A stretch of 64,000 nt of DNA from Marsupella aquatica (lineage: Eukaryota > Plantae > Marchantiophyta), in the NCBI GenBank assembly GCA_973895155.1, contig OZ316895.1, positions 6,316,136 to 6,380,135 of the forward strand, in the 5' to 3' direction. The notes beneath the pieces are model-generated. The model saw only the letters and a list, made by a program, of their open reading frames with translations, was not told where the DNA came from and did not search any database. Each line of letters opens with the position of its first letter. Position 1 is the stretch's first letter. Position numbers and translations under genes: made by a program. Shown piece after piece: positions 8,664 to 56,620 of this stretch.

Positions 8664-8665
8664 AT

Positions 8666-18900: not shown

Positions 18901-19170
18901 CCAAGTGAAATCAAATTCTTACGCATGCCAAGTACATATATACCTGACTCCGGACACTGTGCGCACAGCGCCATCAATCATTTGAATCTTCATAGACCCA
19001 ATTCCCTCAATTTGATAGGAGTGATCATTTCCCATCAGAACTGAACCGTTTGAAACAGAGTAAGAACTGAAAAACTCACAAATAAAACAAATATGAAAAG
19101 AGCAAGCACAATCAAGAATTCACACATCATCTGCTACCCTAGATGACGTGCACAGGGCATACCCCCGACT
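15919..19170 (-). pseudogene. pol: Copia pol of element #2 (multiple stops/frameshifts, small deletion in integrase)
   Basis: Fragment ORFs 18603-18977, 18054-18392, 17356-18093, 17023-17331 and 15919-16971 are collinear with pol of #1. Confidence 0.93.
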
Positions 19171-20208
19171 TCATAAAACATACTCATCATTGAGTAAATC
19201 AGCTTCTCCATCAACCCTAGCCACATTTGCCGATGAAGATTCCGTTGCCTTTTCCTTACAGTTTTGCTTGAAGTGTCCAACTTGGTTGCACTTCCAACAT
19301 GTCACTTGCCTCCTCTGAGGGGATTTACCCCTGGACTTAGATCTGGCTTTAGATCTAAATTGGGTTCTACGATCCCCAGTTGGTCGCTGCATACTCCTCC
19401 CACGATTAACATTGAAGGCAGCACCAGATGATGAAGGTTGTGACGTGATGTGCATCTTTTGCTGAAAATCATCACTAAGCAGAGAACTTACCACGTCATT
19501 GTATGAAATGGTATCCCTATCACGATGCAACAACACTCGTGATAGGGATTGGTAAGATGGAGGCAATGAACTGAGAAGCTGCAGAGCCTTTGTCTCATCA
19601 TTCAAAGTCTTCCCAAGATTTTCCAAGTCAACGACCATGTCGTTGAAAGTATCCACATGGTCTTGTAACTTTGTACCGGATCCTTTCATCCTAAAACTCA
19701 TCAGTTTGTAGGAAGTGTAGAGCCTGTTCGACAACTCCTTGCGGTGATACTTGCTCTGCAATTCTGCAAACAAGGACATGCAATCCTTATGTGCAAACTA
19801 CTTGATGATGGGAGGCATGAGATAGAGTGTAACACACCATACTCCCTGCTCCTGCATGCGGTCCCATTGTTTCTCATCAACATCGTCTTCACGAGGGCTC
19901 AATAGTTGGCCCATCCCTGATGCATAGAGCACTCCCTTCACCTGCTTCTCCCATAGTAAGTAGTCAGAGCGTACATCATACTTTGTCACTTCATACTTGG
20001 GTCCCCCAAGCTTGAAAGTCCCCATCTTCTTCTTTGGCACTATTGTGAGCTCCGGTAGTAGTACTGCTTCCTCCACCATACGCCGCACCGGTGATGGTAC
20101 CGGTGTCACGTGCTCTTCCTCCTGCTCCTCTCTCTGGCCCTCAAACCGCGGCGGTGATCCTCGTGCTTCAAGTTCCACATCTTTGAAAAACTCCTCTGAA
20201 TCACTCAT
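19171..20208 (-). pseudogene. gag: Copia gag of element #2, frameshift near 19797
   Basis: ORFs 19798-20208 (MSDSEEFF...) and 19171-19779 (CWKCNQVGHFKQNC). Confidence 0.92.
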
Positions 20209-35449: not shown

Positions 35450-36960
35450 AGTAGACAGTGTTGTGAAGCGACTGAAGAAAGTCCTATGTCCACCTATGGA
35501 TAGAACTCACAGGCGCAAAAGACCGTTGTGGCATGGGGAGATCTTTCATAATCTTGACTCAATGTAGCCCATCTGCCTCAAGTCATACGTTGAACTGAAA
35601 TGCAAAAGCCTTTGAATCTCCTCCATAGAAGTTGTCTCATCTTGTTGATATCATTGTAATGCTTTATTGTGTGTGACGCTGCTGGTGAAAGTTTAGAGTA
35701 GAAACTTTCACTATGAGTCAGAGGGGGCGCACTTCCATAATAGGGGGGACCATCATGTATTATCACAAATGACATGGTTTTGCAATTCATTCTGAAAAAC
35801 TGTAGCCCTCACACTCGGGTAGGTTGTGCTCAGTGAGGCCAATGCTCTGCTGCAATTTGTTATAGAAAATGGTGAATTTTGCAAAATCCGTCCCGTCCAG
35901 CCTGGTGCTCCTCAGCCTTTGGGTGATGCCCTCTTGGGGAATCCACCCACCATGCAGTGTTCTGAGGTCCAAGAGTTTCCCAATCCCGCGATTAGCCATG
36001 AATCTCCTCAAATTGATGCTTCCTTGATTGGAAACCCTGTTATTGCAAAGGTACAAGAGAACCGTTGTCGTGCCAAACCATTTCGGCCCAACAATCGGAA
36101 ACAAGGAAGGACCGACTAGATACTCATCGCTGGTCAGTGACAAGTGCTGAGCTGTTCAGGATAGATGTTTGGATAAGAAAGGGATTCAGTCAGCTGGTGA
36201 CTCGACATCAGTCGACTAAGAGGCTTGAGTGTTGGATGGTTGATGACTCAGTCGGCATACAAGAGTGGTGCTACCTGAGGACTATAAGAGGGCTTCGGCT
36301 TAACGAGGAGAGGCATGATGGGCATTATGACAAGTTTGATCAGTAGTTCCTTGGTGACCGATTATGAGAAGTAGGGATTGGATTTGGCTTCTAGTGCTTA
36401 GGGCTAGTAGGTTTGAGGTTGAGATAGATTTTTGAGTATGAGAGCTTGAGGAGGTAGGTTTTTCCGTGGATCTCCAAAGATTGACTCGAGGGGTAGTGAG
36501 CTTGATGAGAGATAGGTAGTGGCTCGCCGCAGGACCAGTGATCAGACTCTCACTAGTGGCCTACTTGAGGGCAACTGTTGTAACCTGAAAGAGAAAACTA
36601 AAATTAAAGGATTTTGAGAGAGAGCTTCAAAATATGCTTGTCGTTGGTCTCGATTGCGGCCAGAGGCAAGTTGCTTACCTGAGGTAGCCCTTACTCTAAG
36701 TCATCGCGACACCATCTGCTCAATGGACATTTTGGAAGGGAGCTTATCTTCCCCAAAGTTGAACTTGAGCTGCTTGCTGTCTTGGTGCCAACCTCTTAAC
36801 AAGCCTTTCAGCACCATGGATCCTTTGAGCGCAAGGTCATCACTGAGAAGTATGGCTTCACTAGCTGTCCAACCTCTTCTCTCTTTCTTCTTTGGTCCAG
36901 AATTTAGCCCCCAATTTAGCCCCCTCATGATGATGTCATGAGCTATCTTAATCCACTCTC
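35450..36960 (-). pseudogene. Probable degenerate LINE ORF2 C-terminal fragments
   Basis: Short minus ORFs (RRGWTASEAILL..GSMVLKGLLRGW..LKF....LP; RQLLWRRF) resemble the post-RT / zf-RVT region of plant L1. No RT core seen. Confidence 0.3.
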
Positions 36961-37669
36961 TCTCTCTCTACGAGTTTAGTAATGTGCCACGTCTTCAGGG
37001 TTTGGGCTTGCTCCTCAACAACTAAGGAAGTCAGTAGGTAAATTTCCATAAACTCCTCCAAACCACAATATTAGTATCATTTGCCCTAAACTCCAACAAG
37101 AATCCGTTGGACTGTTGAATGGCACGAAAAGAAGAAACAATGGCCATAATGTTATCCACATGAAGGACCAGAAGATTGCCAATAATATTTTTAAGTACAT
37201 CCATATCAGACAAAAAAGCTTGCAGGAAAGGAGAAACCCGTGACCATTTAATGTCGTACGTAATTGAAGAAATTTTCTGAACAACTGATTTATCTCTTGT
37301 AAGCGAGGAGTAATATTGTAAAATCTCAACTCCGCCTCTTTGATAGTTAACAAGAAGCCTTAAAGGATGGGTCTAAGGCCTTAATTCCTTTTTCCAAAAA
37401 ATTATAATTTTTAGAAATGTAGTCCTAAAACAAGCAATAAAATCAGCATATTTGTTTGACATTCACCCTTTGCAAATTAAACTAGACTTTACGTCAATGT
37501 TTGAGACAAAACATATTCAAAACTTGATTTTCATAGAATTGACCTGTCAAAAACAATCATTTATATCATAGTCTAGGCTCCCAGGCCATTGACATCTCAA
37601 AACTTGCAAGTAAAGTCTACTTCTATGCAACTACAACAACCCTAAAATGTCTTACAGAAATATCCTCAG

Positions 37670-40600
37670 CTAATCATCTCTTGTTTCCTCAGCACTTCCA
37701 ACAATTCCTGAAGAGTCAAGTCCTATGATTTCCTCCTCTCCAACTCCTATCTCTGGTATTGGTAGAATGGTCTCTTGAACATCAACATCTAAATCCACCA
37801 TGCCTTTGCCATCATCTTCCTCAATGTTGTCCACCAGGTTTAGAATTCTCCCTTTCAAGACACTGCTCTGGCGCTCATCAATTTCTACAGCAACACAATG
37901 TCTTCCTTGTGCCAAAGAGGAAGACAATCCTATGCCTGACCCTGAACAAATATCTAGCACCCAGTCTCCAACCTGGCTAAAGTGGGTAACTTCCCAATCC
38001 AATAACACTCTTGGCTTCTGGTAAAAGTTCACCATCTTATTGTCCCCGTTGTGTTTCAACTTATTGGTCACAGCTGGACACACAACCACATTATTTCGAG
38101 ACTCATTAGTCTCAAAATTGAAATGCTCCAAAGACCGTTTCCCATCCTGACTATGAAAGCCAATGGTGAAACACTCAAAATTGTTGTTAAGCCTTGCACC
38201 TCTTGCATTCTTAACATTGTCTTTCACCCTGCAAAAACCAAAACTTGCATTATGGATTTGTTTCAAAATCAAACATCATGAAATCATGAACACCAAAAAA
38301 ACATATTCACCTTTTGAAATGTTTCTTACCAAATACAATTCTGGAAACCACCATTACACTCAGCTTTCAAGACAGTCTTGACAGCATCATACTGGTCAAT
38401 ACTATGATGAATGATAATTCGCCAAAGATTTGCCTTGGTGACAACCTTGAAGGACTGAACCATCTTGGTCACCTCTTCCACACCCCATCCAACATTGTCT
38501 TCGTGAAGACAAGCAGTCATTCCAAACCCATAAGGAATATTTGCCAAAGCCAATGTGTAAGCTCGTGATGGGATTACCTCGTGCAACCGCTGAGCATCGT
38601 GTGTAAAGATATCATAGTACACATCCCCAAACTGTGGATGCTCAAAAGCATTAGGATGAAGTTCACTTCCCTGGGTCTCTTGGCAAGATTTCTTCATTGC
38701 CAACCAGTTCTGTGCTTGTGCAATATGTGCATTGAACTTATCTGGGAAGGACTTCAACTCTTTGCTTTCTTCATTCTCTCCCTTCTTTTCCCGAGAGCTG
38801 TTGTCTTTCTGAGAAAACAAAATTGGGTACATGAGATTCCTACATACTTAAGAATAAAACTGTAAAACAAATGCTCAGTCAATCTCAAATAAACTTACCC
38901 AAGTCTGGAAGACAGGAACAAAATTCTTCAGCACATTATCAATGTAGTGTTCTGGGTACTTGGTTTTGCAATTCTTCCAACTCTCTTCGTGAAGACAGGT
39001 AAGAAATGCTTTTTGAACTTGCATTTGGAATTTGTGTCATTGAAATTCCTGTCCCATCTCTTGAAGAGATAATTCCTTTGCAAAAACCCTTTGTAGCACT
39101 GGACAGATCATGTCCGGATCTTTCAATGCCTGCATGTGTCTCCACTTAGTCAACTTCATATCCTCACATAGCATTTTAGCATCTCCAGACTTGGACATCT
39201 TTTTCTTGGTCTTATCTCCTTTCTGTCCTTTTATCTCACAATTCTCCCACCTGTCAAATATCTGCCGTATGAAAGACCAAACAAGATCCTTACGAAATGC
39301 CAATTGAAATAAATTATCATTGGCATTCAGAACCTCAAAATCTTTACGTACACCCCAGTCCTTTAGATTGATTTTAGTGGCACACTCCTTCTTGAAATCA
39401 ACATTTGATGATGCTCCATTCTCTACAAATCGCATGTGAATGTAATTCACTCTTTGGATGGTGCTCATTTGTTGACAAAATTCAGAGTCTATATTATGAC
39501 TCCAAGCTAAGTTCCTTGCTTCCTGGATAGACAAGCCTGCAAAGATCCAAGATTGCACTCTCCTGTACGACTTGTTGTTGGGAAATTGTAATGCCAGGTC
39601 TGCCTTTGCACAAGCAAAATGATTTCCCCCAATCACGTAATAGTGGTAATCATTCTTTTTTGAGAAATCAAAATCAGCTCGAGTTGGGCACTCCTTGGGA
39701 TCAACCAAGAGAACAAAAGGTGCTGCCAATGGACTAGCTCCAGCTGCTTTCATCCTTGTTGTCAACTGTGTAAGAAAGTAGGGTTGGATATGCCTTACTT
39801 GGTACACTGGCAACTCCAAAGATTTCTCCCGGACAGGTGGGTGAAGTTGTGCAATGTCAATTGTGATTGTCTCCTCTTGAACTCAACACCTCATCAAAAT
39901 CCCTTCCTGGTACACCACCCGAGCATCCATAGACATAGATTGAGCCTTCTGCTCCAGATGAGTGGGGACTTTTTCCAACGTCTGCTTCTTGGATTTTGGT
40001 GGACTTGGTCTTGCACCTTGAGAACCCTCTGGTCCACGTTTCTTTGATGAAGTCCGAGTACCGGCAGTGCCCTGTGCTAATCCTCCAGTCACAATTGTCC
40101 CCTCTTGTGATCTTGCAATTTGTGAACCAACACCAGATATTGGAGATGTAACAACCATCTTTCTCGTTGGGACAGAACTCGGACAAGATCCGGAAGGAGC
40201 AGAAGAAGGACCAGACTTTGGTGGACGGGCACTGGCACTCTTCTCTGCTGCTTTTCGAAGAATCTCCCTAGACTTTTGAATTGCACTCTTCAATGTGCTG
40301 GCATGATGTTCAAACACAAAACCAACAATGAGCTCTGCAATCTCATCGTAGCTTTCTTCTGCAGACAGATTCTTCACCTTCTCAATCATCATCTCAATGT
40401 CATCAGGCAAGTAACAATGTGCAGCTCTTCCAGAAAATCTCTCACTGTCAACTGCAATCAGTGTAGATGTCTCCTTTGTTGTGATAAGCATATTGAGGAC
40501 ATCAGCCCCTCGTCGAAAGACATCAATCCGGCCATAATTCACCCAACCAAGACCTCCAGAAGGCAAGGTCTCGTAGATGCACAACATCCAAAAAGACTTC

Positions 40601-40881
40601 TTCCACGATTCTGTACCCAATGATATTGTCCAGGAAGAGTTTCCAAAATCTGTCAAAGGATGCTCAACAAAAATAGCGTCTAACACCTTCTCCTGTGATT
40701 TTGGTTCAACCATTCTGACTTCCTGAAATCAAGTCCAACAATGCAAAGTCAGCTCTGTTTGTTTTTCAAGTTCAGTTGCAGAATTCAGATTCATGATTTC
40801 ATGAAGCAAGGTTCTTACCTTGACAGTGGAGTTGGAAGTTGAATTTGCAGTGCCTGTTGTTCCCGCTTAGAAGAGTGTCAT
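37670..40881 (-). pseudogene. Four-exon ParB/Srx-like domain + beta-class N6-adenine/N4-cytosine DNA methyltransferase fusion (~974 codons, 3 in-frame stops)
   Basis: Predicted exons 40881-40819, 40722-38899, 38808-38330 and 38228-37670 with GT-AG introns join in one frame (2925 nt). Motifs: YYVIGGNH (ParB-like), LALANIPYG (motif IV), CIWVK..RLNNNFE, YQKPRVLL, GDWVLDICSGSG..GRHCVAVEID (motif I, SAM binding). Stops: TAA in exon 1, TGA at 39883 and 39037. Exon 1 is the least certain part. Confidence 0.85.
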
Positions 40882-41039
40882 TGGTATTTTTATCCCTGAT
40901 TTTGGCTTAGCTTATCTCCTTCACCTCCCTGGCAGATGCCTAAGCTGATGGACCCCTCCCCACTTAATGTCGTTTGCAATGTCCTCCCCAATTTGGACCT
41001 TGTCCCTTCGGCAATGGTCGATCCTCCCCAGGCCTTCGA

Positions 41040-41470
41040 CTAAAGCTCTCTCCCTCGCAGCGCCTTGTCAATTTTCCTCCCCCCCGGCCTTAGCCAATTT
41101 CTTCCTCCCCCTGGCCTTCGCCAATTTCTTCCTCCCCTGGCGCTTCGACTATTTTCCTCCCCCCGGCCTCGACACTTTTTCCTCCCCCCGGCCTTGACAC
41201 TTTTTCCTCCCCCCGGCCTGCGCCTCGACACTATTTCCTCCCCCAGGCCTTTGCCAATTTTTCCTCCCCTGGCCGGTGCTTTGAGTAATTCCCCTCCCCG
41301 AGGCCGGCGCTTCTTCCCCGCGCCCCCGGCTGCGCCTCGACAATTTGTCCTCCCCCCGGCCTTTGCCAATTTTGCATCCCTCCCCTGGCCTTCAAAAATT
41401 TCTCCTCCCTCCCACGAACTTTGCCAATTTCCTCTCCCCAGGCCTTTGACAATTCCTCCCCGAAAACTCT
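41040..41470. repeat. C-rich tandem array (~27-31-bp units) inside the MTase element
   Basis: Units like (GCCAA/GACAC)TTTT(T)CCTCCCCC(C)GGCCT repeated more than 10 times. Confidence 0.85.
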
Positions 41471-41640
41471 CTCCTAAGCGCAAACTTGCACGACAGCTTT
41501 TGATCTTGATGTCTCCTAACCAAATTTCTTCCACTCCCTTCCACGATTAATCCTCCATTCCACGACCGATCTGCGCCTCAACAGCCAGGAAATTACAGAG
41601 CTGCACCAGATGTTGGTCCGCCCCCGATTTTCAGTTCCAG

Positions 41641-41729
41641 TTTAGGGATTCAACCCAACTCCTATTCAGACCCTTCAACCTAACTCCTATTCATGAGTTC
41701 ATGGATAGGAGTTGGGTTGAATCCCTAAA
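41641..41729. repeat. Long inverted repeat / hairpin
   Basis: TTTAGGGATTCAACCCAACTCCTAT (41641-41665) pairs with ATAGGAGTTGGGTTGAATCCCTAAA (41705-41729). Confidence 0.85.
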
Positions 41730-41766
41730 ATCCTATTCATGAATTCATGGATTCAATCAATCTCTC

Positions 41767-42450
41767 TTGCTTGAAGAAAGACCTTTGATCTCTCCATTTG
41801 AATGGCCCAAGGCACAAGGGGATACAAATGTTGAAGCTCATCTCGAAGCTGAACCTCTTACAACTATATTGAATGAGGAAGAAATTGAAGAGAGAGTGTA
41901 CAGTCCAACTAGAGAAACTTATGTTGGTCCATATCGAAATCAAGAAAAGATAGATGCAAAGAAGGAGAATATGGAAGGTGATTTTTTGGATTTGGAAATC
42001 AACACATTTATTTCTGTGGCCGGAGAGAAGTCTGAATCATTTTGGGTGGCTAAAGTAGAAAAAATTGTTCTTCGCGATGAGGCTCACATCCCAAAGATTA
42101 TCTCAGTTTTGTGGCATGCAGCAAAGAAAGGATCCGACCCTTGGAAAGGAAAATATCTACCAGAAGTGTTGAGTTACAAGAAGAAGAAAAGTGGACGAGG
42201 CAAGGGAACCTTGAAACCAGTTTGGTTTCGTCAAGACCTTGATCTGTCTTCAACTACGGTCTTTGCATATAATTTTATGCTAACAAGGTCTGATACTCTT
42301 TACAAGAAAACAATAGATCGTATTAAAATACGACTCTCAGAATTTCTCAAGGAGGAGAAAGACCAAGAAGGTGAAGGTAGCATAGTTAGAAATTATGAAC
42401 AAGAAACTTCAATGGAAGTTCGGACTCTAGAAATGAATGGTAGGAATTGA
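41767..42450 (+). CDS. 5'-truncated ORF, probable C-terminal part of the element's transposase or accessory protein (SH3/BAH-like beta domain)
   Basis: 227-aa stop-free frame starting just after the hairpin, with no upstream ATG in frame. LEINTFISVAGEKSESFWVAKVEKI...IISVLWH resembles chromo/BAH/SH3-type barrels. Lies inside the TIRs. Confidence 0.5.
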   Translation: MLEERPLISPFEWPKAQGDTNVEAHLEAEPLTTILNEEEIEERVYSPTRETYVGPYRNQEKIDAKKENMEGDFLDLEINTFISVAGEKSESFWVAKVEKIVLRDEAHIPKIISVLWHAAKKGSDPWKGKYLPEVLSYKKKKSGRGKGTLKPVWFRQDLDLSSTTVFAYNFMLTRSDTLYKKTIDRIKIRLSEFLKEEKDQEGEGSIVRNYEQETSMEVRTLEMNGRN

Positions 42451-43274
42451 GATTTACCAATCTTAGCAATTTTGTCAAACAAGAGTATTTGCAATTTATT
42501 ATTGTTTGAGTTGGTGGCAAACCATAAATGTTGTGAATGATGAATTCATGAATCATATTGAAAGAAGTTTGACATTTTGAGAATGTCCATCGTGTGGGCA
42601 GTCTTGTTTGAGAAATTCAGAAAACAAAATATTAACTAAAAGAGGTACCTTCTAGAATCCCATATATATTTGAAAGCTTTTGATATACTCGTCATTCCCT
42701 TTGTGTGAATGATGGTTTTTCTTGGTAAATGAACCCTAGGATCCTACAAACTGCAAAATAATTCGGAAATCTTGACCCTCTTTTGAAAACTTTACATATT
42801 TGGGATGTCAATGAACTTTAGGGTGGTATTTCAAGGGTGAATGTGTTATTGAGCCGATTGAATGTGTGCTAGTAATAAATTGCAACATTGAAATATGTGG
42901 TATTTGCTTATTAAATGTTTCCCACAACCAGTTTTGTGATTTTGAGTAGTCAACATGATGCCCTATTTTGTGTTTTTTTGCAAGTTTTGAGTTCTTGCCA
43001 AAAAAAGAGCTTGTTTTTAGATGCATTTTTTGGCTTTTTCCATATTTTCAAGGTTTTTTATCATTAGTTCTTATACATTGGGCTTATTACCCATCCTTTA
43101 AGGCTTCATGTTAGTTGCCTCCTCTTGACTTGGCCCAGCATACACTTACACGTACTAGTAAGACTCTTAGTGATGAGAACTCTGAATGAGTTTGAGGTTC
43201 ATCCTCCTGTCATATTTATAGTGCTTGGTACAAAGTTTCTTTCAAAAGCTCGCATGCCTAAGGAAATATCTCAA

Positions 43275-43475
43275 GTTCCTTCCTAGCACACCTTACTAAG
43301 AACTTTCTATGGTTCTTTCCTAGCACACCTCGCTCAGAATCTTCTATGTTTTTTTCCTAGCACACCTTACTAAAAAATTTCTATGGTTCCTTCCTTGCAC
43401 ACCTCGCTAGGAACCTTCTATGGTTCCCTCCTATCACACCTTACTGGGAAGTCAACCTTCTATGGTTCCTTCCTT
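43275..43475. repeat. About five copies of a ~38-bp tandem repeat
   Basis: TTCCTAGCACACCT(T/C)(A/G)CT..GAAC.TTCTATGGTTC units. Confidence 0.8.
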
Positions 43476-43621
43476 GTTTACAATACTTGTGTCCATTTCG
43501 ATCATTTCTTTCAACGTCAAACTACCTCATTGCCTATTGTAAGAAGACTTCCTAGGTATCTTACAAAAGTATTCTAAAATTCTCTTTATGAAATATTCTA
43601 GGAATTTATCTTTAAGACAAT

Positions 43622-43935
43622 TGTTAAAGAATATTCTAAGTTATTACAAATATACACAGTGGGAAGAAATTGTTGAGAGCCCCCCTCTCATTTTAGACAG
43701 GTATGACAGGTGCAAGTAGAGGGGCAACACCAAAGTAAGTTTTGTCTTAAGGGATTGAATGAATGGACAACCGTCAATTGGTGGTCAAACTATTTAAAGT
43801 AAATGCCTAATTGCAATGATAATTAAATTACATGGAGCAACGGCTAGTAGGTGGCATGGTAGTTAGCGCCCGAGTTAGGGTGATGAATGGGAGAACCCAA
43901 GGACAATTTATGTATGCATTAGTCCTGAACTTTCA
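43622..43935 (-). mobile_element. Solo LTR of a second copia family (family B)
   Basis: TGTTAAAG...GAACTTTCA with TSD ACAAT on both sides. Homologous to the PBS-adjacent LTR at 63037-63371. Confidence 0.8.
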
Positions 43936-45217
43936 ACAATAATAGCCGCCAGACGTGCGATCCACTGCCCCTCCCTCCCCTTCCTGGACTAGCCTAACCC
44001 TCCTCGTTTGCCCCACGTTCTTTTTCCCCCTCCCTCCGCCACCGGTTTCTTTCTCCAATAATAGATGAGAGCCAAATTTTGTAGAATAGATGTCATAGGG
44101 AAGGAGCCCAAAGAGGCATGGTCGTGTGGTAGCCCAGTTAAGTTGAAATGATAGGTCTAGAGTTTAAATATTGTGACTAATTTTTCCCTTAAATATGTGA
44201 GCGTTGATTTTGGAGGAAGGAGAACCTTTGTTTCATTTCAAGAGACAAGTGCTTCAAAGGACAAGCAAGAGTGGATTGTAGCAATGCAAACAGACTGAGA
44301 TGTAATCATTGAAGAACAACAAAACTTGGAAGCTTATCAAACTACTTGAGGGACAACAAATGGATTTACAAAGATTTGATCCACAAGAGGAGGATGGAAG
44401 GTCTACAAGGCTAGGTTGGTAGCCAAGGGATTCACATAGGCAAAATGTGTGGATTGCAATGAGGTTCTCTCACCAAATGCTAAATAAATCTTTACAATTA
44501 TACAGCTATTGTGTGTACTGTCTTGTTGTTATGTTTGATGTGCTGCTAGATTAGATGAATGTTACAGTCACAAATTTTCTCTATGGCACCTTGGAAGATG
44601 TGATTTTTATGAGATAGTCATTAGGTTTTGTGAAAAAAGAATATGAGGCATTGGTTTGCATATTGCTAAAATCCTTGTATGGGTTGAAGCAATGACCAAG
44701 ATAATGGAATAAGCGGTTAGACAATTGGATCCATCCACATGGTTTTCACAAAAAAAGTGTTTGACTCTTGTGTGTAGTTGAAACCGATGAAGAATGTTGT
44801 TTTTGGGTTCATTGTTTTAGTACTTTATGTGGATGACATGCTTATTGCGGCCAAAGATAGGTGTGAGATTGTTAAGCTCAAGACATTACTTAGTGCAAAG
44901 TTTAAGATGAAGATTTTAGGGTCAACAAGGAGGATTTTGCGTATGGAGATCACTAGGGACTTGGAGGCCCGCTTGGAGGCTAGTAAGCTATGGTTGACAC
45001 AAAGCAGTTAAGCAAGAAAGGTTCAATATGGGGAATAACAATCCAATAAATACCCCTTTGGTTGCATACTCCAGATTGTCATCAGGTTTTTGTCCCACAA
45101 ATTTGATAGAGAAAGGGCTAATGTCAAAGGTTGCTTATAATAAGTCAGTGAGGAGACTAATGTATGTTAGATATTTACTCTTACATCTAGGGTTACGACA
45201 TGTAGTTACCATAGTTA

Positions 45218-48200
45218 TGTTAGATATTGCTCTAGTCTTGTGACTCTTGTGCTAACCACAATTAGGCTAACTCGGGTTAGGACCTAGCTAAGGTTAGCGG
45301 TAGTGCTGTTGTGCATATAGACAGGGCTAATACCAGACCCTGGTGGAACTTAGGCTCATTGTTACGGAGCTAGTTGAGAGATAGGGAGAGCTTGTGCTGT
45401 GGATGCTTGGTATGGCCGGTCGGCCTAGAGTGCAGTAAAGCTCTTGTGTGTTCCCGTGGACGTAGCCTCATGTGGAGGTGAACCACGTATCTCTCTGTGT
45501 CGACTATTGTGCGTTGGATGGTTCATGGGCTTGCCGTTGCGAATGTCGTCTATGCTCAACAAGTGGTATCAGAGCATGCCTGGGAGGTGACGAGGTTTTT
45601 TTGTGACAGGTGTTTTCCAACGTTCATTGTCGATGGTACATTCGGAGTTTCGTCGCATGAAACTCGAATGTGTGTGGCTGTGCGGATAGGTTAGTGAAAG
45701 GGCTTTCTAACGGTGGTTAGAACCTGCTGATCGGTATCCGTGGTGCGAAGTAATCAAAGTTTGCGTCGTTCAGGTTTTATTCATGTTCGACGGTATTTTT
45801 GGGAGAGTGACCAGGGTTTACGTTTTTCAACGGTGTGAGTTGTGCGGTGCGGGAGGGATCGCACATTATAGCTTAAGTTGAAGGTTGAAGCGAGCTGGTC
45901 ATTTCGATAGCTGCATTGCTGCCGAGTTGTTACCGAGTGCGACGTGACGAGTGACGGAGGCGTTCAGGTTTTTTCACAAGCTATGGAGCTTGTTCTCATC
46001 TGAACCGGTTTTTTCTTTGTAACGTCCGACTCGGTGGAAGAGACGTGAAGTGCTACGGCTCAACGGTTTGATCGCGGTGAGGCGGTTGTTTTGAGCCCGG
46101 GATTGGCACTTGATGCGGAGTGAAGGTGACGTGATGGAATTTTTTTATTCTGCTGGAGCAGTAGATTGCGCCGGTGCAATTTGGCAACATTTCCCGTCGG
46201 CGGCGTTCACTTTCCTCACTTAAAACAGCGGCATTCAAGGTGTGTAAACGACTTTTTTGTTTTAAAGTCAAATCTTGGCTTAGGTTAGGGCCACTTTTGG
46301 TGTGTATACACACCCTCCCAGCCCTTGGTCCCCCATCGTTTCCCCTTGTACGCCCGACCCCCCCGCACCTTGTTTTCCCCTCATCCTTCAGCCGCGGCGA
46401 CGAGCTGCGCAACACCGGCCGGCGCTTTTCGCGCCCTCATACGCCCTCCGCCATACCACGCCAGTCGCTGCCTCGGCCCCGCCCTGACGTCGTATGGCCG
46501 GCCTTGCATGTGTACGCGGCTGCGTATGCATCCGCTCTATTACACCGCCCTAGTAACCCCAAGGCGTACTCCCGGCCTTACGCCCTTCGGGCCCGCCCGT
46601 TCATACTGTATTTTTTTATTAGGGGCTTAAGCACCCCCTTTAGGGCCATTATTTTGCCTCTTTTTCCTCCTTATTGGTTTCCTTTTGTGCCGGGACCTGC
46701 CGCCCTCCGTTTAAACCGCTTGGACAGGGGGAACGGCCCCCTGTGAGACCTGCTGTACTGTGCGGGAATATTCCCAAAAAACAGAGAGCTTCTGGACACA
46801 TCATCAAGCAACTGGATGATTATGCGGATTGCGCGTCATTGTTCAAGGCTCTTAGAGAGAAATACTACCGGGAAGATGTGTCAGACCGGCTGTACAAGAA
46901 GTCTCTCTTGATGAGACTTAGGCTCAAGGAAGGGAGCAAGATGCAGGATCACCTGGATGAATTTGATAGTCTTGCGGTGGATCTGTCAAACCTGGGAAAA
47001 GGAGTTGAAGATGAGGATAAGACCTTGCTTCTGCTAAGCTCCTTACCGCCGTCTTATTAGGGCTTGAAATAGGTTCTCTTGTATAGAGATTTGAAGTCCA
47101 TTTCGTATAATGAGATGGTGAGCTCATTACTGTCTGATGATGCTCAGAAGAAGCTGGGTCAATCACAGACAGCATCTTCTTCTGGCATTGCGCTGAATGT
47201 GAACAGGGGAAGAGTAGTGCAGCGCACGAATGGACAGAACAGGTTTAGATCTACAACACGGGGGAGATCTAAATCCAGAGGGAAATCGCAAGAGAGGAAG
47301 CCTCTTGCATGTTGGAATTGTGGCAAGCCTGGTCACATGAAAAGGGATTGTCGAGTAAAGGTCCCTATTGCCTCTGCTAATGCGGCATCGAGCTCGCATG
47401 AGGTAGATTTACTCGATGATGATGACATATTGTGATGTCAAGGTTATGCTCTCAACGTAATGTCAAATCCAGGTAAAGATGACTGGATTCTAGATAGTGC
47501 ATGTACTTTTCACATTTGCTCTAGAAGAGATTGTTTCAGTTCTACACGGTTTCCAACGGGTCAGTGTTGATGGGAAATGGAATCCATGTCAAGTTGTTGG
47601 ACTTGGATCTGTAAGATTTCAGATGTTTGATGGTGCTGTGAGAACATTGAGGAATGTGAGACATATTCCTGGCATGATGAAAAATCTCATTTCACTTGGA
47701 GTTTTAGAAGCAAATAGCCACCAGTGGAGCTCTGCTAATGGTGTCCTTCAGGTTTCAACTGGTACTAAAGTTGTATTGAAGGGAAAGAGACATAGCAATC
47801 TATATATTTTGGAGGGCAGTGTAGTTTATGATGAAGCCAATGTAACCTTATCTCATGAGGAGACGGCCCGGCTGTGGCACTTCCGTTTGGGCCACATGAG
47901 TGAAAAAGGTTTGGTTATTCTTTAGAAGAAAGGATTACTTTCTAATTTGCAATCTTGTAAGTTGGAATTTTGTGAGCACTGTGTGCTAGGGAAGCAGCAC
48001 AGGAAACCCTTCGGAGTTGGAACTCACACTAGCAAGGAGGTACTTGAGTATGTACATAGTGATGTGTGGGGCCCAGCCCCTACTCCCTCATATTCTGGAC
48101 GGTTATACTATGTCACGTTCATAGACGATTACTCAAGGTATGTGTGGATATACTTTCTACACAATAAGTCTGATGTTTTGGCCACTTTTAAGGAGTGGAA

Positions 48201-50041
48201 AGCCCAAGTTGAGAATCAGACTGGTAATAAGGTGAGATATCTTCAATCGGATAACGGCGGTGAATACAGTTCCGCGGAATTTGGAACATATTGTAAGGAG
48301 CAGGGGATTACCCGCCATCTCACAACAAGTTATACTCCTCAGCAGAATGGTGTTTCTGAGAGACTCAACCGAACACTATTGGACCACTCGAGGAGTATGT
48401 TGAGTCAATCATGCTTACCACATGAGTTTTGGGCTGAAGTTTTTCAAGGATGGTGTATGATCCTTGTGTGTATACGAAATTAGTCAAGAATGATGTATTT
48501 GGTTTCATCATTCTGGTGATTTATGTGGATGACATGCTGATTGTGGCTAAAGATCAATCTGAGGTTGACAGTCTCAAGGCAAAATTGAGTGCTGAATTCA
48601 GGATGAAGGATCTTGGTAAGGCCAAGAGAATCTTAGGGATGGAGATTTTTAGGAACTCTGAGACTGGACAGTTGTGCTTGAGTCAAGGCCAGTATGCGAG
48701 GAAAGTACTTGCACGATTCAACATGGAAAACTGTAAGCCAGTGAGTATTCCTTTAGCTTCACATTTCAAGTTATCATTGGCTTTCTCTCCTACGGAGACT
48801 GTGGAGAAAGGTCTGATGGCTAAGATTCCTTATGAGAAGGCAGTAGGCAGTCTGATGTATTTGATGACTTGTACTAGGCCTGACTTGGCCCTAGCGATGG
48901 GCAAGGTTAGCAGATTCATGTCAAATCCAGGGAAGGTACACTGGGAAGCTGTGAAATGGATTCTCAGGTATGTGAAGGGAACACAGGACTATGGATTACT
49001 ATTTGATAACAGATCAGATAGAACGTTGGTTGGCTATGTAGATTCTGACTATGGAGGCTGTCTGGATACAAGGAGGTCTACAACTGAGTTTGTATACACT
49101 CTTGGAGGAGGATGTATCAGTTGGAAATCTACCTTGCAGAAGTGCATATCTTAGTCTACTACAGAAGTAGAGTATGTTGCAGCAGCAGAAGCAGCAAAGG
49201 AAGCAATTTGGTTGGATAAGTTGATCGCAGAGATGGGTTTAGAGCATGGAAAAATGACTCTAAACTGTGATAGTCAGAGTGCTCTTCACTTGGCTGCTAA
49301 CCAGGTGATGGATAGCAGGGTGAAGCACATTGATATCAGGTACCATTTTATCAGGCAAGCAGTGTTTGATAAAAATTTTGAGCTAGTCAAGATTGATGGA
49401 AAGCTCAATCCCGCTGATGCCTTTACCAAAGTGATTCATTTGGAGAGCTTCTCAAGACACCGTGCTACTTTGCAGGTTTTGCAGTTGTAGTGCAAGTAGA
49501 GTTATTTAGCAATGTGTGACTATTTGTATATGGATTACTCATTCCTGTTAGGCTATGACTTAGTTCTAGTTAACCCTTAGTTAACCCTTGTGGTTTTTAG
49601 GGGGAGACCTGGTTTGGTGATTGTCTAGAACTTCCCGCTGAGGATTCCATATGGTAGCATTTAGTCCAGTCCCCAAGATAAGAGTCAAGGGGGAGTTTGT
49701 TAGATATTGCTCTAGTCTTGTGACTCTTGTGCTAACCACAGTTAGGCTAACTTGGGTTAGGACCTAGCTAAGGTTAGCGGTAGTGCTGTTGTGCATATAG
49801 CCAGGGCTGATGCCAGACCCAGGTGGAACTTAGGCTCATTGTTACAGAGCTAGTTGAGAGATAGGGAGAGCTTGTGCTGTGGATGCTTGGTATGGCCGGT
49901 CGGCCTAGAGTGCAGTAAAGCTCTTGTGTGTTCCCGTGGACGTAGCCTCATGTGGAGGTGAACCACGTATCTCTCTGTGTCGACTATTGTGCGTTGGATG
50001 GTTCATGGGCTTGCCGTTGCGAATGTCGTCTATGCTCAACA
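45218..50041 (+). mobile_element. Internally deleted Ty1/copia element #3
   Basis: 344-bp LTRs (45218-45561, 49698-50041; about 7 differences), TSD AGTTA, PBS at 45564-45575, PPT AAGGGGGAG. Deletions remove the gag 5' part (~46790) and INT C-term/RT N-term (~48440). Confidence 0.96.
46790..49490 (+). pseudogene. gag-pol: Gag-pol remnants of copia #3 (divergent from #1/#2)
   Basis: CWNCGKPGHMKRDC, WILDSACTFHIC, LWHFRLGH, SDVWGP, SDNGGEY, YVDDML, CDSQSA; several stops and frameshifts. Confidence 0.92.
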
Positions 50042-50891
50042 AGTTAGGCTAATCATGGTTGGAGACATGATTAGGTTACTAAGTTGCACACTATATATCC
50101 TAATCGGTGCTTGCTAGGATAAGTGGAACTAAGGCTCATTGTTACAGAGCCACTTGAGAGATAATGAGAGCTTACATTGTGGAGACTTGGTATGATCGAT
50201 GGGCTTAGAGTTCAGTAAAGCTCTTTTGTGTGTTCTCGTGAATGTAGCCTCGAGGAGGTGAACCACTTATCTCTTGTGTAGACTACTTGAAGTGTTGGAT
50301 GTGTCATGGGCTTACTGTTGCGATTGTTGTCTATGCTCAACAATGTATTTGATAACTTGTACTAGAGCTGATCTTGCCATGGTCGGGGCCATGGCTATCA
50401 TGGGTAAGGTGAGTAGGTACATGTCAAATCAAGGGAAGGTACAATGGGAAGCAGTGAAGTGGATTATCAGGTATTTGAAGGGTATAGTGGATCATGGTTT
50501 TTTGTTTGATGCAAACGTAAATAATGCTAGATCATTGATTGACTATGTAGATTTTTACTATGGACAAGCTCTGGACCAGAGGTATGGAGATCAACAATAG
50601 GGTCGGGAATAGGGTATGTGTCCACACTTGGCAATGGATGCATAAGTTAGAGGTCTACATTGCAAAAATTTATAGCTTCAAGAGCACTCTACTACAAAAG
50701 CATTTGAAGTATGTCAAAGCAGAGGAACTTGTAACAAAGAAAACAATTTGGTTGGATAAAATTATTACTACTTAGATAAGATTTTTACATGAAAATGTGA
50801 AGCTCCACTGTGATAGTCAGAGTGTCTGAGCTTCATCCCCGACTTCATCTTGTTGTGAACTAGGTGATGGACAGTACTTAGAGTGAAGCGC

Positions 50892-51520
50892 CCGGTTTGA
50901 AGTGATGGGCAACTTGCCGAGTTGCTCGACACGTAAACTCGGCATTTGCCGGACTAAAATGCCTCCATTTGACGCATATTCGCTCTTATTCCCTGGCCCG
51001 GCCCGAATTTCTCCCGGCCCGGCCCAAACTCTTCCCAACCTCATCCAGGACCCTACCGCCCTTCCCTTCCCGCAAACCGGCCCGGCCCGGCCCCCCTGCC
51101 CTCACCCGGACCTGGCCGGGTCCGGGTGAGGAGGGGAGGGGAGGCCGGGTGAGGAGGTCGAGTGAGGAGGCCGAGGGAAGAGGGGAGGCTAGGTGAGGAG
51201 GCCGGGTGAGGAGGTGAGGAGGCCGGGCCCGAGGGGAGGCCCGGTGAGGAGGGGAGGAGCCGGGTCCGGGTAAGAGGGTCCGGGAATGAAATCCTGGAAA
51301 AGTCCGGGCCGGGCCGGATCTTGGGCCGGGACCGGGAGAGTCAAAAGGGGAGCAAGGCCGGGGGAAGGGGCCGGGGGGAAGGGGGAGAGAGAGGAACTCG
51401 GGCCGGGAGGTCATGGTTGGACCGGGCCGGGACCGGGGGATCGAGACCGGGAGAGTCCGGGTGTCGACTTGCCAGTTGACGGCCTCGAAAGGGTCTATTT
51501 GTCGGGCAAGTCCCAACCGG
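50892..51520. mobile_element. 629-bp GC-rich non-autonomous insertion with 9-bp TSD (MULE-like)
   Basis: GTGAAGCGC duplicated at 50883-50891 and 51521-51529, interrupting the RNase H VK.IDVRY codons. Termini CCGGTT...AACCGG. Confidence 0.8.
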
Positions 51521-54500
51521 GTGAAGCGCATTGATGTTAGGTACTTTTATTAGCAGACTATGTCTGATAATGTATTTGAGTTTGTCAAGATTGATGGTCA
51601 AATCAACCCAGCTGACGCCTTCACCGAAGTAATTCCTTTGGAGAGTTTTTCTAGACACCGTGACATACTGCAGGTTTTGCAATTGCGTTACAAGTAAGGT
51701 CTTTCTTAATATTTGTTGTACCTTGATATATGCTCTTACTCATTCCTATGTATTAGGTTATGACTTAGTTTTGGTTTGCTCTAGTTAGAGAGGGGCGGGG
51801 AGAGGAAAAATGAGTTTTGTTTTGTCCATAACTTCCTGTTGAGTAATCACATAGGTTAGAAATATTAGGTACCTTCCCTAGACTAGAGGCAAGATGGAGA
51901 TTATTAGGTATCTACTCTTAGGTCTAGGATTATGATTGTAACCATAGTTAGGCTAACTGTAGCTGAAGACATGGTTAGGTTAACTAAGTTGCACACTATG
52001 TCCTAAGCAGTGCTTGCTTGGATAAGTCAAGGGATAAGGAAATCTAAGGCTCATTGTTACAAAGCCACTTAAGAAATAAGGAGATCTTACACTGTGGAGG
52101 TCTACTTGGTATGGCCGACAAGTTTACAATAGAGTTTAGTAAAGCTCTCTTGTGTGTTCCCATGGACGTAGCCCCCGACGGAGCCTTGAGGAGGTAAATT
52201 CCATATCTCTTGTGCCCGCTCTTGTGTCAACCACTTATGCATTGGATGTGTGATGGATTCACTAGTAGAAACCGGGGCAATTTAGACCAAACCTTATAGG
52301 ACTAAGGCCACTAAGTCCTTTTTGGCAACCTTAAATGACTCGAAACCATTGCCACGGTTCACATGAACACTACAAAAGACTGTGAGTGCTTTTTGGTTTT
52401 GGATAAGACTATGAAAAGTATGAACACTCTAGCACATGATGGGTTGTAGGGTTTAGTTGTGGGCTTTAATTTGATAATGGGCATATGGGGGGGTTGCACA
52501 ATTCATTTGACGACCTCTTTACCAACATCCCGCTAACTTGAACACGGACAAACGGCGTACATGTTGAAATTCCCTAATTTCGAATATACTCCATAGTGGG
52601 TTTGGGGGGGTTTAGGGCTCAAGGGTGGGCCGGTTACATGTGAAGGGTGTGGGGGTTCACCACTAAAGGGGTTTGGGGGGGTTTATATGCCAAGGGTGGG
52701 CCGGTTAGGTCTCAAGGGGGTGGGGGTCAGTAAAGGGGGTTTCGGGTCAGAGAACACTCAATTGAAATAGTGACGCAGCAATTTAGGGTAAACGAACAGG
52801 GACCGTGGACCCTAACTTGTTTGCTGCCTTGGGAGGATTTGGAGAGCTAGAGGCAACATGCTTCATTGATCCTAAACTTGCAAGCGGCGCTCTAAAATGG
52901 CCCCTGGCATTGCAAAAACAGTCTGGCCATAGTCGAGTTGTCCAGACGTTTAGGGGGTTTATATGTCAAGGCGTGGGGGTGGCTGAGTTTTCACTAAAGG
53001 GGGTTTAGGGGGGGTTTACATGTCAAGGGTGGACGGTTGAGATGTCAAGGGTGGGGGGTTTAGGGTTAAGGGGATGGGGGGTTTAGGGACCATTGGATGG
53101 AGTCCATCGATCCCCACCATCAAAAAGTCGCATATTGGAAGTTTACTCAGCTGGGCAATACTTTGAGAGGGCCGAGTAGTCATGACTTAGCACTAGTTTT
53201 TAGGGGCTAGACAAGGCTTGGAGTGTAATTAATTTAGACACTTGAAGTAGAGGGAATGGGGGCCTGGGGTTAACATGAAACCTGCATATTGATGGTCGAG
53301 ATCACTCAAGGCAATCTCTTTTCATCCGGATGGCTGAGATCACTCTAGGGGCTGCCATGTTATGGTAAGGTTGGCGCCAAACGGCTCTTTGCACCCTTTT
53401 CACCCTCGCGCCTTTCAGTCGTGTTTTACTTTTCTCACAAAGTATCGAGGCTCAACGTTGAATGTTGCGGTTAGTGTCTGCCACTCAGCGTTTAGGGCGA
53501 GAGGGTCGAGGGGTTTAGCAAGGTTGCGCTGCTGTTTTGCCTCAAGAGTGTGCAATCAAGGCTTCAATCAGGTCTCCAGGAGCTGCGGGAGCGCTGTGCA
53601 AAGTGTTGCGGGAGGCTGTGCAATGTGCTGCGGGAGTGCTGCGGGAGTGCAAAGGGTTGCGCTGCTGTTGCAAGAGTGCTACTGCGGGAGTGCTGCGCGG
53701 GAGTCTGAGCTCAGTGGGAGGGTTTAGGTTTGGCTGATCGATGTGCATTTACAATTGTGGATAGTAGTTTGCATTGGAGTTGCAAAGGAGCTCGCCAAAG
53801 TTGTGAAGGAGCAGGGTACAGTGGGAGTTGCGGGCTGCCATCGGCCCTCCTATTTTTCTTTTACTCCCACAGCAAGCTCCCGTATGAGCTCTTGTGTGAG
53901 CTTTGTTCAGCTGCGGTGGGTGCTAAGCTTATTTCCGTCGAGCTCAGCTGTGCTGTGCTGATTTTTGTCTAACAAAGCTTGGGGGAGGTTTGCCGGTTGG
54001 ACGTTGGAGCTGCGCTTGTGATATTTTGGGGTTCGGGCAAAGGGCGGAGGGCGAAGATCAAGCATTGTCGTTTTGCTAACGCTGCGTGGTGGAAACTGGA
54101 CCTGCGAACTCCTTGTCTATGGTGTTGTGGAGCTGGGCGAGCTGCAACAAGGGACCGAGCCGGGTGACCTGTGAATCAAAGCCCATCGACCGCTGCTGAA
54201 GGTTTGATGTCCAGATTTCTTGCCTGTGAGTCCCCATGTTTGCAGTCTCTGTCCCAGTCTCTTGCGCAATGCTCGGCATTTGATTGCACTTACTGTGATT
54301 GACCACCTTGCATGATCTCCATCCGTGGGCTGGACCCCAAGAAGTAGATTTTGGCGGCTACTTGCGGAAGGGATTGAAGAGATTGGAGTGCTTGCTCTCT
54401 TTGTCCCTCCCCTTGAAATTGTGGGCCTTAAAAAGGTCAGTTGGCTTATGTAGTTTTGCTCCCCTCCGCTATGTCAATGCGCGCATGTCCGCTATGTCAA

Positions 54501-56043
54501 TGCATATTTTTTCCCTCCGCTATGTCAGTCGCCGTTTGCCTATAACCGGACTGCTCATTTGATGTCCACTCGTCTGATGTAATGCTTCCCGTTGCCACTG
54601 CTGAAGGTTTGATGTCCAGATTTCTTGCCAAACAAAAGTCCCCATGTTTGCAGTGTCTATCCCAGTCTCTTGCGCAGTGCTCGGCATAGTGCCCATGATT
54701 CGATAGGGAACTGATTCATGAAGAATCGAGCGTCGGAAGAAATTCACAGCAGCAGAAAGAAAGAAAGAAAGAGTCTTCGTTGCGTTTCATCGAGTTGGGT
54801 CTTTTGGTGTCACTTCAATGAGAGCATTTGCTCGTGCAAATCCTCGCACGGCCATCACTACCGAAAGCTCGTCAATCCTCATGCCACGATCTCCAACTTC
54901 CAAATTCCAATTTCCATGGAAGGACGGCGGCGCGCACATTAATTGCGCACAGTAATGGTCATCTTCGAAGGACGACCTCCACGGGACCAGCACGACGTCG
55001 AGTGAAAGATGAAATGATCTCTCTCGTGCGGGCATCCCGTCCTGCTGTGATGCACTAAAGGTTTTTGGCATCATTCCGATTTTGTTTCCCTTTCTTGCTC
55101 ACGGTAATCAAATGGAGCAGTAGCAGCTCATCCTGTACTGCGGCGAAGTGTTGACAATGGAAGACTTTTTGTGGGAGCGAGGAGGGCGAGAACTTGTGGC
55201 AGCTCCTCGTCTGTGTGTAATTCTGTGCGCATTAGACACGATCTGCCCGCCGATCACCATCCTGACTCTCTGTCCTTTGCAAATGGTGCTTTTCTTTCCT
55301 TTGTGAGGATGGGAGCGTTTTATCGTTTTCCTTGAGCAGGCAGAGGATTTGCTGGGAGGGAAGTTGATGATGAGGATCGAATTCCCCGCCTATGGTTCCG
55401 CTGAGAGTCTGTGGCAACTGAAAGGAGGGCAGGCACGAGGGAAGTGAGGTGATGAGGGGCTATGGATGAAGAGTTGCTCAAAATATGTTTTCTGCTTCAC
55501 GTCTGGATTATTAATATTCACCGCGAGGGACAAGAGAGAGCTGCCCGACATGCTTGTTTCCGGGTTGATTGGGCGACCTTTTTATTTAAGGCAGAAACCT
55601 TATCAATTCGTCACTTGAAACCCGCGGTCTAAAATTCTGAGGTCCAGCCCTGCAGACGAATTGACAAATTGGAGGTCTCTCGATTGATCATTACTGAGGA
55701 TGGTTATTCGGAAGTGACACTCTCCTGGTTTCTGATGTAGGGGCGAGTAGATGGCCTGATTTCTGACGTCTTGAATCGGGGATCTTTGCTTGGATTTCGC
55801 TTGATAGGGCTGCCGGAGCTGTTGAAGACACTTTTTTGTTCGACGTGTCTACATTTACGTCAGCTGGAAATAATTCGGTCGATTCCTGATCAAGGATCAA
55901 GCCTCTTCAAGGTTTCCTCTCTTCTTGATGTCAATGAAGTCGGAAGAGAGTTGTGGCACTGCGAGACATTGACAGGTCTCACGAAAAGTTGAGCGTTGTC
56001 AAAGACAAGCTCCTTCCTTCGGTTCTTACTTTTGAAGTAAAGC

Positions 56044-56620
56044 ATGGCCGTGCAAAAGGTAGCTGGAGGAGGGCGCTCAAGCGCCAGAGGGCAGAGTTTT
56101 CTCGTTTGGGTAATCTTCGGTGTAATCTGCCTCGTATTGTTCCAATTTTGGACCTACGAACAGACATGGTCTTATGATCGCTCATACTCTCATGCATCTA
56201 AGAAGACCCTCAGGGCCATGCTGATGAAATCTCGGTTTTCTCCAGAGGATGATAATGGAGTTGACAATAACCAAGATTTGCGTCTTCTGAGGGAACTATT
56301 CACTGTTTGTAATTCAAGCTTCGGTTATGATGGGATTGGGGAGACGAGAAGTAAACCGCTAAGTGGAGGGTGTCTCGTGAAACTGCAGGAGACCTTCCCG
56401 TCACTCCAACCCTTGGTTGTGCCTGCTCAAGACGGACAACAAGAGTCACAAAAAAACAAAAAAAATTATAAAAAAAAAGATCACAACTTTGATTGTTGTA
56501 GACCTCTAAGGTATGCAGTACGATAGGGATCCGAGTGAAGTTGTCCCAAAATTATCGTATGAACTTGAGTTGCCAACAGGTCCCATTAAAAATAAATGCC
56601 AGTATTCAAAGTTGTTGTCT
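56044..56620 (+). pseudogene. Possible captured host-gene 5' fragment (type II membrane-anchor N-terminus)
   Basis: ATG start, hydrophobic SFLVWVIFGVICLVLFQFW, stem region and a DCCRP motif; frameshift near A-runs. Lies inside the CACTA. Confidence 0.35.

Follow-up and report, generated by a model that had tools for sequence, protein, structure and literature searches.

Can a cut-and-paste transposon of a land plant carry, as a working part of itself, a DNA amino-methyltransferase of bacterial type? This question is raised by an element at 37349–43112 of a 64,000-nucleotide stretch of the liverwort Marsupella aquatica (the "window": positions 6,316,136 to 6,380,135, forward strand, of contig OZ316895.1, assembly GCA_973895155.1), which a preliminary description had read as a eukaryotic transposon with terminal inverted repeats (TIRs) and such an enzyme as cargo. 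Here, we find that the window element is a broken deletion copy from a multi-copy family, whose full-length members pair a DUF7869, Sola-like transposase with a gene encoding a predicted ParB fold and a beta-class methyltransferase. Taken alone, the claim of a transposon family with a selected methyltransferase gene is one that we hold with very high confidence, while the use of the enzyme to the element is considered more tentatively below.

The window element belongs to a multi-copy family

The 24-bp TIRs and the AGTT target-site duplications (TSDs) lie where they were first described:

37345–37348, strand not applicable: left TSD, AGTT, read from the sequence
37349–37372, plus strand: left TIR, 24 bp, beginning AACA, found by repeat search, with a depth step and a contig break at the element's left end
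43089–43112, minus strand: right TIR, 24 bp, one mismatch at 43108, found by repeat search, with single-depth flank contigs beginning at 43077–43078
43113–43116, strand not applicable: right TSD, AGTT, read from the sequence

By chance, ~9e-5 inverted 24-bp pairs matching this well would be expected in 11 kb. Contigs of four public runs from two studies (X1–X4, one of which may be the assembly source) were aligned to window positions 36300–44200, and two further runs (X5 and X6, share 0.13) were left out of the depth comparison. The ratio of median summed depth inside the TIRs to that of the flank was 6.3 (X1), 8.9 (X2), 48.2 (X3), and 12.0 (X4), where summed contig depth is not copy number and only the depth step and its position were used. 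In most of these runs, single-depth flank contigs stop at 37377 and restart at 43077–43078. The window TIRs bound a multi-copy repeat family, and this depth step, the spliced genes, and relatives with shared ends bear out the reading as a eukaryotic TIR transposon family. A bacterial contig was rejected as an explanation, given the GT–AG introns and Copia elements present. An unfilled site of the window insertion, one of the checks first proposed, was not found among the 15 of 24 contig joints listed, and the runs compared carry the insertion.

The methyltransferase gene is linked to a DUF7869 transposase

A metagenome scan confirmed 120 related stretches, of which the best 80 were kept as loci; these share the exon layout of the window gene. 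Full-length members span about 7.6–8.6 kb and hold two head-to-head genes, one for a DUF7869 transposase and one for a ParB-methyltransferase. The transposase was recovered over most of its length in 11 loci, and in each of the 10 loci whose upstream sequence reaches 3.3 kb or more it lies head to head with the methylase gene. In the eleventh locus (L044) it lies downstream and comes from a neighbouring element: a transposase of the L029 family and its left TIR (L044:4033–6332) sit inverted downstream of another element's methylase gene, as a nested or adjacent insertion. The same head-to-head layout recurs in lineages only ~30–35% identical in the ParB part, and the protein distances of the two genes correlate across the 11 loci (Mantel rho 0.77, reached by 0 of 5000 permutations), although kinship alone also predicts such a correlation. 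The amino-methyltransferase was thus rightly assigned to the element, as a fixed part of the family linked to the transposase, and did not turn out to be a single-copy syntenic host gene without these TIRs.

The ends of these relatives point the same way. Among 32 projected ends, 2 were cut by contig ends and 30 had differing flanks, with 28 of these 30 beginning AACA. L036 (7724 bp) interrupts a Ty3/Gypsy pol frame and is flanked by TGTT on both sides, the duplication register with which that frame agrees. The TIRs of L035 (7594 bp) and L048 (6044 bp) are 34–37 bp long. Between the TIRs of L035 and L036, only the DUF7869 and ParB-methylase genes were found, with no reverse transcriptase and no tyrosine recombinase. 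The relatives' transposase matches the DUF7869 profile at E about 1e-52 and conserves aspartates at IDGMD, QLDNT, and HDxID; since it had no PDB match, catalytic roles are assigned to these acidic residues only provisionally. A pattern-limited search found no transposase relatives in viral contigs.

Beyond the two genes, long inverted repeats, the largest arms reaching 216 bp, form an extensive nest downstream of one element (L043:11219–14966). In L024, L025, and L026, a 16-bp inverted repeat with copies about 4.05 kb apart encloses just the methylase gene within the element. An 844-residue pentatricopeptide repeat (PPR) gene 1.7 kb past the right end of one element (L026:6691–9222) marks a plant host.

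The window copy is a broken deletion derivative

The preliminary description had listed one methyltransferase gene, a tandem array, a hairpin, and a divergent open reading frame between the TIRs. All of these are present, but the gene is broken and also holds a predicted ParB-fold domain, while the hairpin and the reading frame are deletion filler and a transposase remnant, respectively:

40819–40881, minus strand: exon 1, likely untranslated (splice model)
38899–40722, minus strand: exon 2, in which translation likely begins at ATG 40713; an N-terminal domain is followed by a low-complexity linker and the ParB-like part (splice model)
39040–39882, minus strand: ParB/Noc-fold N-domain (GGNH motif), then a helical predicted DNA-binding domain (AlphaFold2, predicted local distance difference test (pLDDT) 88.3, 67 sequences)
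38330–38808, minus strand: exon 3, with catalytic motif IV at 38541–38530 (NIPY in the window, DIPY in other copies and relatives)
37670–38228, minus strand: exon 4, encoding the C-terminal half of the beta-class methyltransferase, including YQKP and the S-adenosylmethionine (SAM)-binding motif I DICSGSG (37954–37934)
about 41005–41463: C-rich tandem array of 25–30-bp units in the spacer between the divergent genes, a candidate enzyme target
41673–41750 (78 bases): filler at the internal deletion, mostly direct and inverted copies of the adjacent preceding sequence (repeat comparison)
41751–42450, plus strand: C-terminal stump of a DUF7869 (Sola-like) transposase, catalytic core missing (sequence comparison with longer relatives)

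The divergent frame (41743–42450, 235 codons) is present as first described. Its stump is 51–56% identical to longer proteins, all six of the longer matches carry DUF7869 (PF25273), and the transposase of L031 recovers it by tblastn at E 8e-9. The hairpin (arms 41641–41668 and 41702–41729) arises from templated filler where the deletion was joined. Contigs depart from the window sequence at 41672 (X1) and match it again from 41751 (X1, X4), and their letters before 41751, translated by eye, read WTSFFEEQR in frame; a longer protein (P0186) has WNMFFEEQR just before the stump. Because contigs diverge at 41672 and 41751 and the intervening bases copy their neighbours, the window copy is an internal deletion with templated filler, i.e., a non-autonomous deletion derivative. 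Longer copies are common in these genomes, since the diverging contigs have depths of 89.4 (X1) and 641.3 (X4). The C-terminal domain preserved in the stump (window 41751–42450; L031:546–1052) had no library match; it keeps invariant FW, WY/WH, and GKY at ~25% identity, with dN/dS ~0.1 (3 pairs). Its look may be Tudor/PWWP-like, possibly that of a chromatin-reading barrel.

The minus-strand gene has four exons separated by GT–AG introns of 96, 90, and 101 bp. Exon 1 is likely untranslated because its frame holds a stop and because an ATG also follows the acceptor site in L001 and L002. From ATG 40713, the model runs to 950 codons, with in-frame TGA at 39883–39885 (codon 277) and 39037–39039 (codon 559). 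The whole contig depth in X1–X4 differs from the window at base 39885, removing the first stop, and reads an Asp-giving base at 38541, where the window has Asn in motif IV; since all depth in four runs differs there, both changes are private to the window copy. At the second stop, relatives have R or Q, and the position is not among the 40 of 553 differences listed. The methylase gene is therefore a pseudogene in this copy. RNA editing of the stops was considered and rejected, because this is a nuclear gene and its stop at 39885 is private.

The gene matches Pfam N6_N4_Mtase (PF01555) at E 2.8e-6, with 27.9 bits against a cut-off of 26.7, and its motif IV (residue 695 of the model) lies N-terminal to motif I (residue 857), which is the beta order. 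The best profile matches of the methylase part were the methyltransferases PHROG 67 and 498, and its top PDB matches were M.RsrI, M.MboIIA, and CcrM (E about 2–5e-6), with N4CMT at only E 0.35. For the ParB part, no convincing Pfam or PDB sequence match was found, and only fold searches of the 39040–39882 model identified the domain: Foldseek returned ParB/Noc at E 7.6e-6, a VIA comparison to PadC gave Z 9.7 and a root-mean-square deviation (rmsd) of 3.0 over 97 residues, and phage ParB proteins ranked top in a viral fold search. As modelled, the window gene includes a ParB N-domain fold (ParB/Srx superfamily). ParB CTPase clamps carry an arginine-rich GxxR motif that binds cytidine triphosphate (CTP); in this family it is replaced by GG[NS]H, with G85, G86, and H88 nearly invariant. 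Pattern-limited searches found no relatives of the ParB part in viral contigs or prokaryotic genomes, and a single-sequence fold of the Ginkgo protein reached pLDDT 32. In P0080 and P0182, a homolog of the ParB part is fused to a sterile alpha motif that replaces the usual N-terminus.

Purifying selection on the methyltransferase gene

Next, we evaluated median ratios of non-synonymous to synonymous substitution (dN/dS, NG86 method, pairs with dS 0.1–1.2). These were 0.153 for the N-terminal domain (29 of 1176 pairs), 0.08 for the ParB part (67 of 2145), 0.081 for exon 3 (35 of 1081), 0.051 for exon 4 (33 of 820), and 0.078 for the transposase core (2 of 55), from pairs that are non-independent and, as for exon 4, a small share of all pairs. 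Two exon-4 alignments (A2 and A4, 8–20% identity, apparent misalignment) were excluded. Overall, these ratios indicate that the methyltransferase gene is under strong purifying selection among element copies. Motif IV reads DIPY in 46 of 47 loci and SPPY/TSPPY in none of the 47, while of 41 loci, 35 have a complete motif I, 4 an altered one, and 2 one that the end of the alignment truncates. Among homologs, DPPY occurs only in the distant P0160 cluster, others have DFPY, DAPY, or DVPY, and the pattern D-x-P-Y persists from Chara through the vascular plants.

Proposed role of the enzyme and alternatives

The two divergent genes are separated by a common spacer, which contains tandem or palindromic repeats. 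Among the 16 palindromic 4-mers, TCGA was the most enriched in pooled spacers (121 vs 29.9 expected), significantly so in 7 of 9 spacers, and the window array, unrelated to the relatives' repeats, holds 6 (1.0 expected). Since tandem repeats inflate any k-mer relative to shuffles, and the nine spacers are mostly from related samples, we treat the enrichment as a lead only, with the TCGA-rich repeats as the best candidate target of the enzyme. The ratio of observed to expected CpG is 0.75 in the spacer and 0.30 in coding sequence. Published work is cited here and below to the extent of the text available to us; according to PMC8885841, motif IV is DPPY in enzymes making N6-methyladenine (6mA) and SPPY in those making N4-methylcytosine (4mC). 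Because motif IV of the family begins with D and not S, adenine is favoured as the base and 4mC is less likely, i.e., the product is likely 6mA.

We tentatively propose, at slightly less than an even chance, that the window holds a broken deletion copy of a Sola-like family, in which the enzyme of intact members likely writes 6mA on the family's own spacer repeats and so keeps both genes unsilenced. The transposase would move the element, the window copy having presumably moved or been copied in trans; the ParB/helical part would bind the spacer repeats, where the active methylase would write 6mA beside CpG; and this mark may oppose silencing by 5-methylcytosine (5mC), leaving the shared promoter of both genes active, by analogy with VANC in VANDAL elements. 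We infer every step beyond the anatomy of the element.

Beyond the limits on dN/dS and k-mer counts given above, several points weigh against this proposal. L035 and L048, i.e., two of the three relatives with both ends, lack a matching 4-bp TSD; for L035, joined flanks from collapsed repeats (coverage 111) could explain this. Stops interrupt 21 of 66 ParB segments, along with 3 of 47 exon-3 and 0 of 41 exon-4 segments. DIPY departs from the canonical DPPY at its second position, and TCGA is not enriched in L033, L035, L001, and L002. A transposon context is seen for the metagenome loci, not for the Chara, Riccia, Adiantum, Ginkgo, or animal homologs. From the literature, retrotransposon DAMs yielded no 6mA in E. 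coli (10.64898/2026.05.21.726589), DIRS methylase domains have been called likely inactive (PMC4738411), and Streptophyta are described as being without abundant genomic 6mA (10.64898/2026.05.21.726589), leaving the element with no known host reader of 6mA to rely on.

Part of this evidence would also suit a catalytically silent or weak protein, i.e., an accessory that binds the element through its ParB/helical part and has the methylase fold as scaffold, aiding for instance transpososome assembly or insertion, which we consider unlikely. The non-canonical second residue of motif IV (DIPY, and DFPY, DAPY, or DVPY elsewhere), the distant homologs P0136 and P0172 without clear motif IV, and precedents of transposable-element methylases without shown activity (PMC4738411; 10.64898/2026.05.21.726589) are all consistent with such an accessory. 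However, constraint is strongest in exon 4 (dN/dS 0.051), where the SAM-binding motif lies, and homologs from Chara to vascular plants retain D-x-P-Y.

Improbable, too, is an active enzyme whose mark falls on the TIRs, on the excised element, or on target DNA, and which thereby times or limits transposition instead of countering silencing. This would resemble the Dam control of bacterial insertion sequence (IS) elements and would make sense of the strict co-inheritance with the transposase; however, between families the TIRs have nothing in common beyond the terminal AACA, whereas the recurring motif sits in the spacer. Phage ParB-methylase loci predicted to modify DNA during packaging (PMC4738411) offer a further parallel.

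We give a similarly low probability to an active enzyme whose product is 4mC, or whose substrate is RNA or another single-stranded nucleic acid. Motif IV has D and not S, the nearest solved structures are 6mA DNA enzymes, and the fused ParB-type fold is of a DNA-binding kind, even though this methylase domain has switched repeatedly between 6mA and 4mC, TCGA is targeted by bacterial 4mC enzymes close to N4CMT (PMC8885841 for both), and eukaryotic shifts to RNA have recurred (PMC4738411). Finally, chance capture of a host gene as Pack-element cargo with no role for the element, to which spliceosomal introns and the decay of many copies might point, is highly improbable and largely refuted by the identical head-to-head layout in lineages ~30–35% identical in the ParB part, the linkage in 10 of 10 loci with co-divergence of the two genes, and the purifying selection among element copies.

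Age and host range of the family

A profile search found 670 proteins at E ≤ 0.001, 150 of which were listed. The closest named match to the window was from Calypogeia fissa (61%). Named organisms among 20 distant matches examined were Chara braunii, Riccia sorocarpa (4), Adiantum nelumboides (3), Ginkgo biloba (2), Ptychodera, Saccoglossus (2), and Clastostelium. The ParB-methylase homologs outside plants (P0120, P0170, P0181, P0183, P0136, and P0172) come from hemichordates, with one from an amoebozoan transcriptome. In a quick tree of 66 rows, from which 2 rows were dropped for coverage and in which long branches were flagged and the thorough search was incomplete, the window groups with Calypogeia among liverwort rows, most loci fall near Ginkgo and fern, and Chara stands apart, so that homologs sort roughly by host group.

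With homologs spread over Chara, liverworts, a fern, Ginkgo, hemichordates, and an amoebozoan, the family looks old and not like a recent import. Long vertical descent within streptophytes would fit better than recent transfer, the tree being a test of neither. The suggestion that the element is a recent vehicle of such enzymes into land plants is accordingly not sustained: homologs are already present in Chara, sort by host group, and lack the SPPY of DN4MT1 and N4CMT. A bolder form of the silencing proposal, in which a Sola-like lineage of streptophytes, predating land plants, has kept a ParB-methylase of phage origin and places sequence-specific 6mA at TCGA repeats of a bidirectional promoter, seems doubtful to us. 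If true, it would mean a transposon-made 6mA mark that blocks CpG silencing in plant chromatin and a local source of 6mA in plants thought to lack it, and the related hemichordate and amoeba genes would extend the system beyond plants.

Relation to known systems

We assume that DUF7869 belongs with Sola, as first suggested, and the transposase of the longer relatives fits this placement. The alternative named alongside it, Kolobok, has TTAA as its TSD and was rejected given AGTT, TGTT, and the varied flanks at 30 ends. Like Sola elements as described in the available text of PMC10741241, the family has TIRs (24 bp in the window, 34–37 bp in L035 and L048), a size within 2–9 kb, and candidates for a conserved acidic triad with presumed catalytic roles, along with a 4-bp TSD in two of four elements with both ends (AGTT in the window and TGTT in L036, not L035 or L048). 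Sola1 has been reported in Physcomitrella, and Sola DNA transposons are treated in PMC10741241, PMC9033089, and PMC4455052. The available parts of these reviews mention no methyltransferase gene for Sola, to which the family is likened by features and not by the Repbase Sola1/2/3 sequences. No cut-and-paste element with an amino-methyltransferase was found in the literature searched, and a Sola entry of Repbase may include a second annotated gene; the combination of a Sola-like transposase with a selected ParB-methylase gene is apparently an undescribed pairing.

Among the closest known systems are the DAM-carrying DIRS and long terminal repeat (LTR) retrotransposons, or EpiLTRs (10.64898/2026.05.21.726589), likewise eukaryotic transposable elements with a prokaryote-derived amino-methyltransferase proposed to help the element. 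However, these are retroelements with an NPP-motif Dam domain, whereas the present family is cut-and-paste, with a separate spliced beta-class gene fused to ParB. In the available text of that study, DAM-LTRs are reported absent from Streptophyta, and no DNA transposons are among the Dam-domain carriers described. VANDAL elements (PMC5735166) are, likewise, plant DNA transposons with a second gene and tandem repeats in noncoding sequence, and our proposal follows the same logic; unlike the methylase-domain protein described here, for which anti-silencing is proposed by analogy, VANC induces methylation loss and is not a methyltransferase.

Among enzymes, bdelloid N4CMT and Marchantia DN4MT1 are also beta-class (permuted) eukaryotic amino-methyltransferases, with PF01555 stated for N4CMT, but they are host genes with SPPY/TSPPY and make 4mC (PMC8885841; 10.1101/2021.02.12.428880), whereas the window family has D-x-P-Y, a ParB domain, no chromodomain match, and a location inside a transposon. 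Phage ParB-associated methylases (ParB-terminase loci, PMC4738411; PHROG 67 and 498) likewise join a ParB fold to an N6/N4 methylase; unlike them, the window family has introns and adjoins a eukaryotic transposase, and pattern-limited searches found no close prokaryotic or viral relative of the ParB part. The same source notes few N6A-methylases in land plants and cites ParB-linked phage loci as donors (PMC4738411). By language-model features, the nearest named set to the ParB part was the Starship accessory gene DUF3723 (score 0.96, 180 of 256 shared), which is a lead only; DUF3723 is also a transposable-element accessory gene, but fungal and linked to a tyrosine recombinase (10.1101/2021.12.13.472469), and none of 67 family members had a Pfam DUF3723 match. 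This likeness hints that ParB-fold accessory genes recur in unrelated eukaryotic transposable elements.

Methylases borne by transposable elements are thus already known from retrotransposons, with one heterologous test negative (10.64898/2026.05.21.726589). A cut-and-paste family with a selected beta-class enzyme, a predicted DNA-binding module, and a candidate target would allow a direct test of a plant transposon amino-methyl mark, and shows where, in long-read data already available for liverworts, ferns, and gymnosperms, genuine 6mA could be sought. It also adds an unrecognised eukaryotic methylase family, spanning Chara to Ginkgo.

Insertion site and neighbouring features

The element sits within a further repeat:

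37317–43648 (564 bp once the element is removed): host segment TG...CA, AATAT on both sides, split by the element 32 bp in from the left

This segment (37317–37348 plus 43113–43648) contains a 37-bp tandem array at 43275–43474 and is probably a solo LTR lying within another repeat, whose paralogous flank near 63000–63380 of the window lacks the segment. Two window frames, at 58085–58960 (291 codons) and 56041–56526 (161 codons), had no convincing Pfam match, and the first presumably resembles a CACTA-type accessory protein. Overall, the window is Copia-rich eukaryotic DNA, with nested Copia elements at 2555–9122, 15386–22089, and 44197–52173, the first of which has LTRs (2555–3011 and 8666–9122) that are 99.3% identical.

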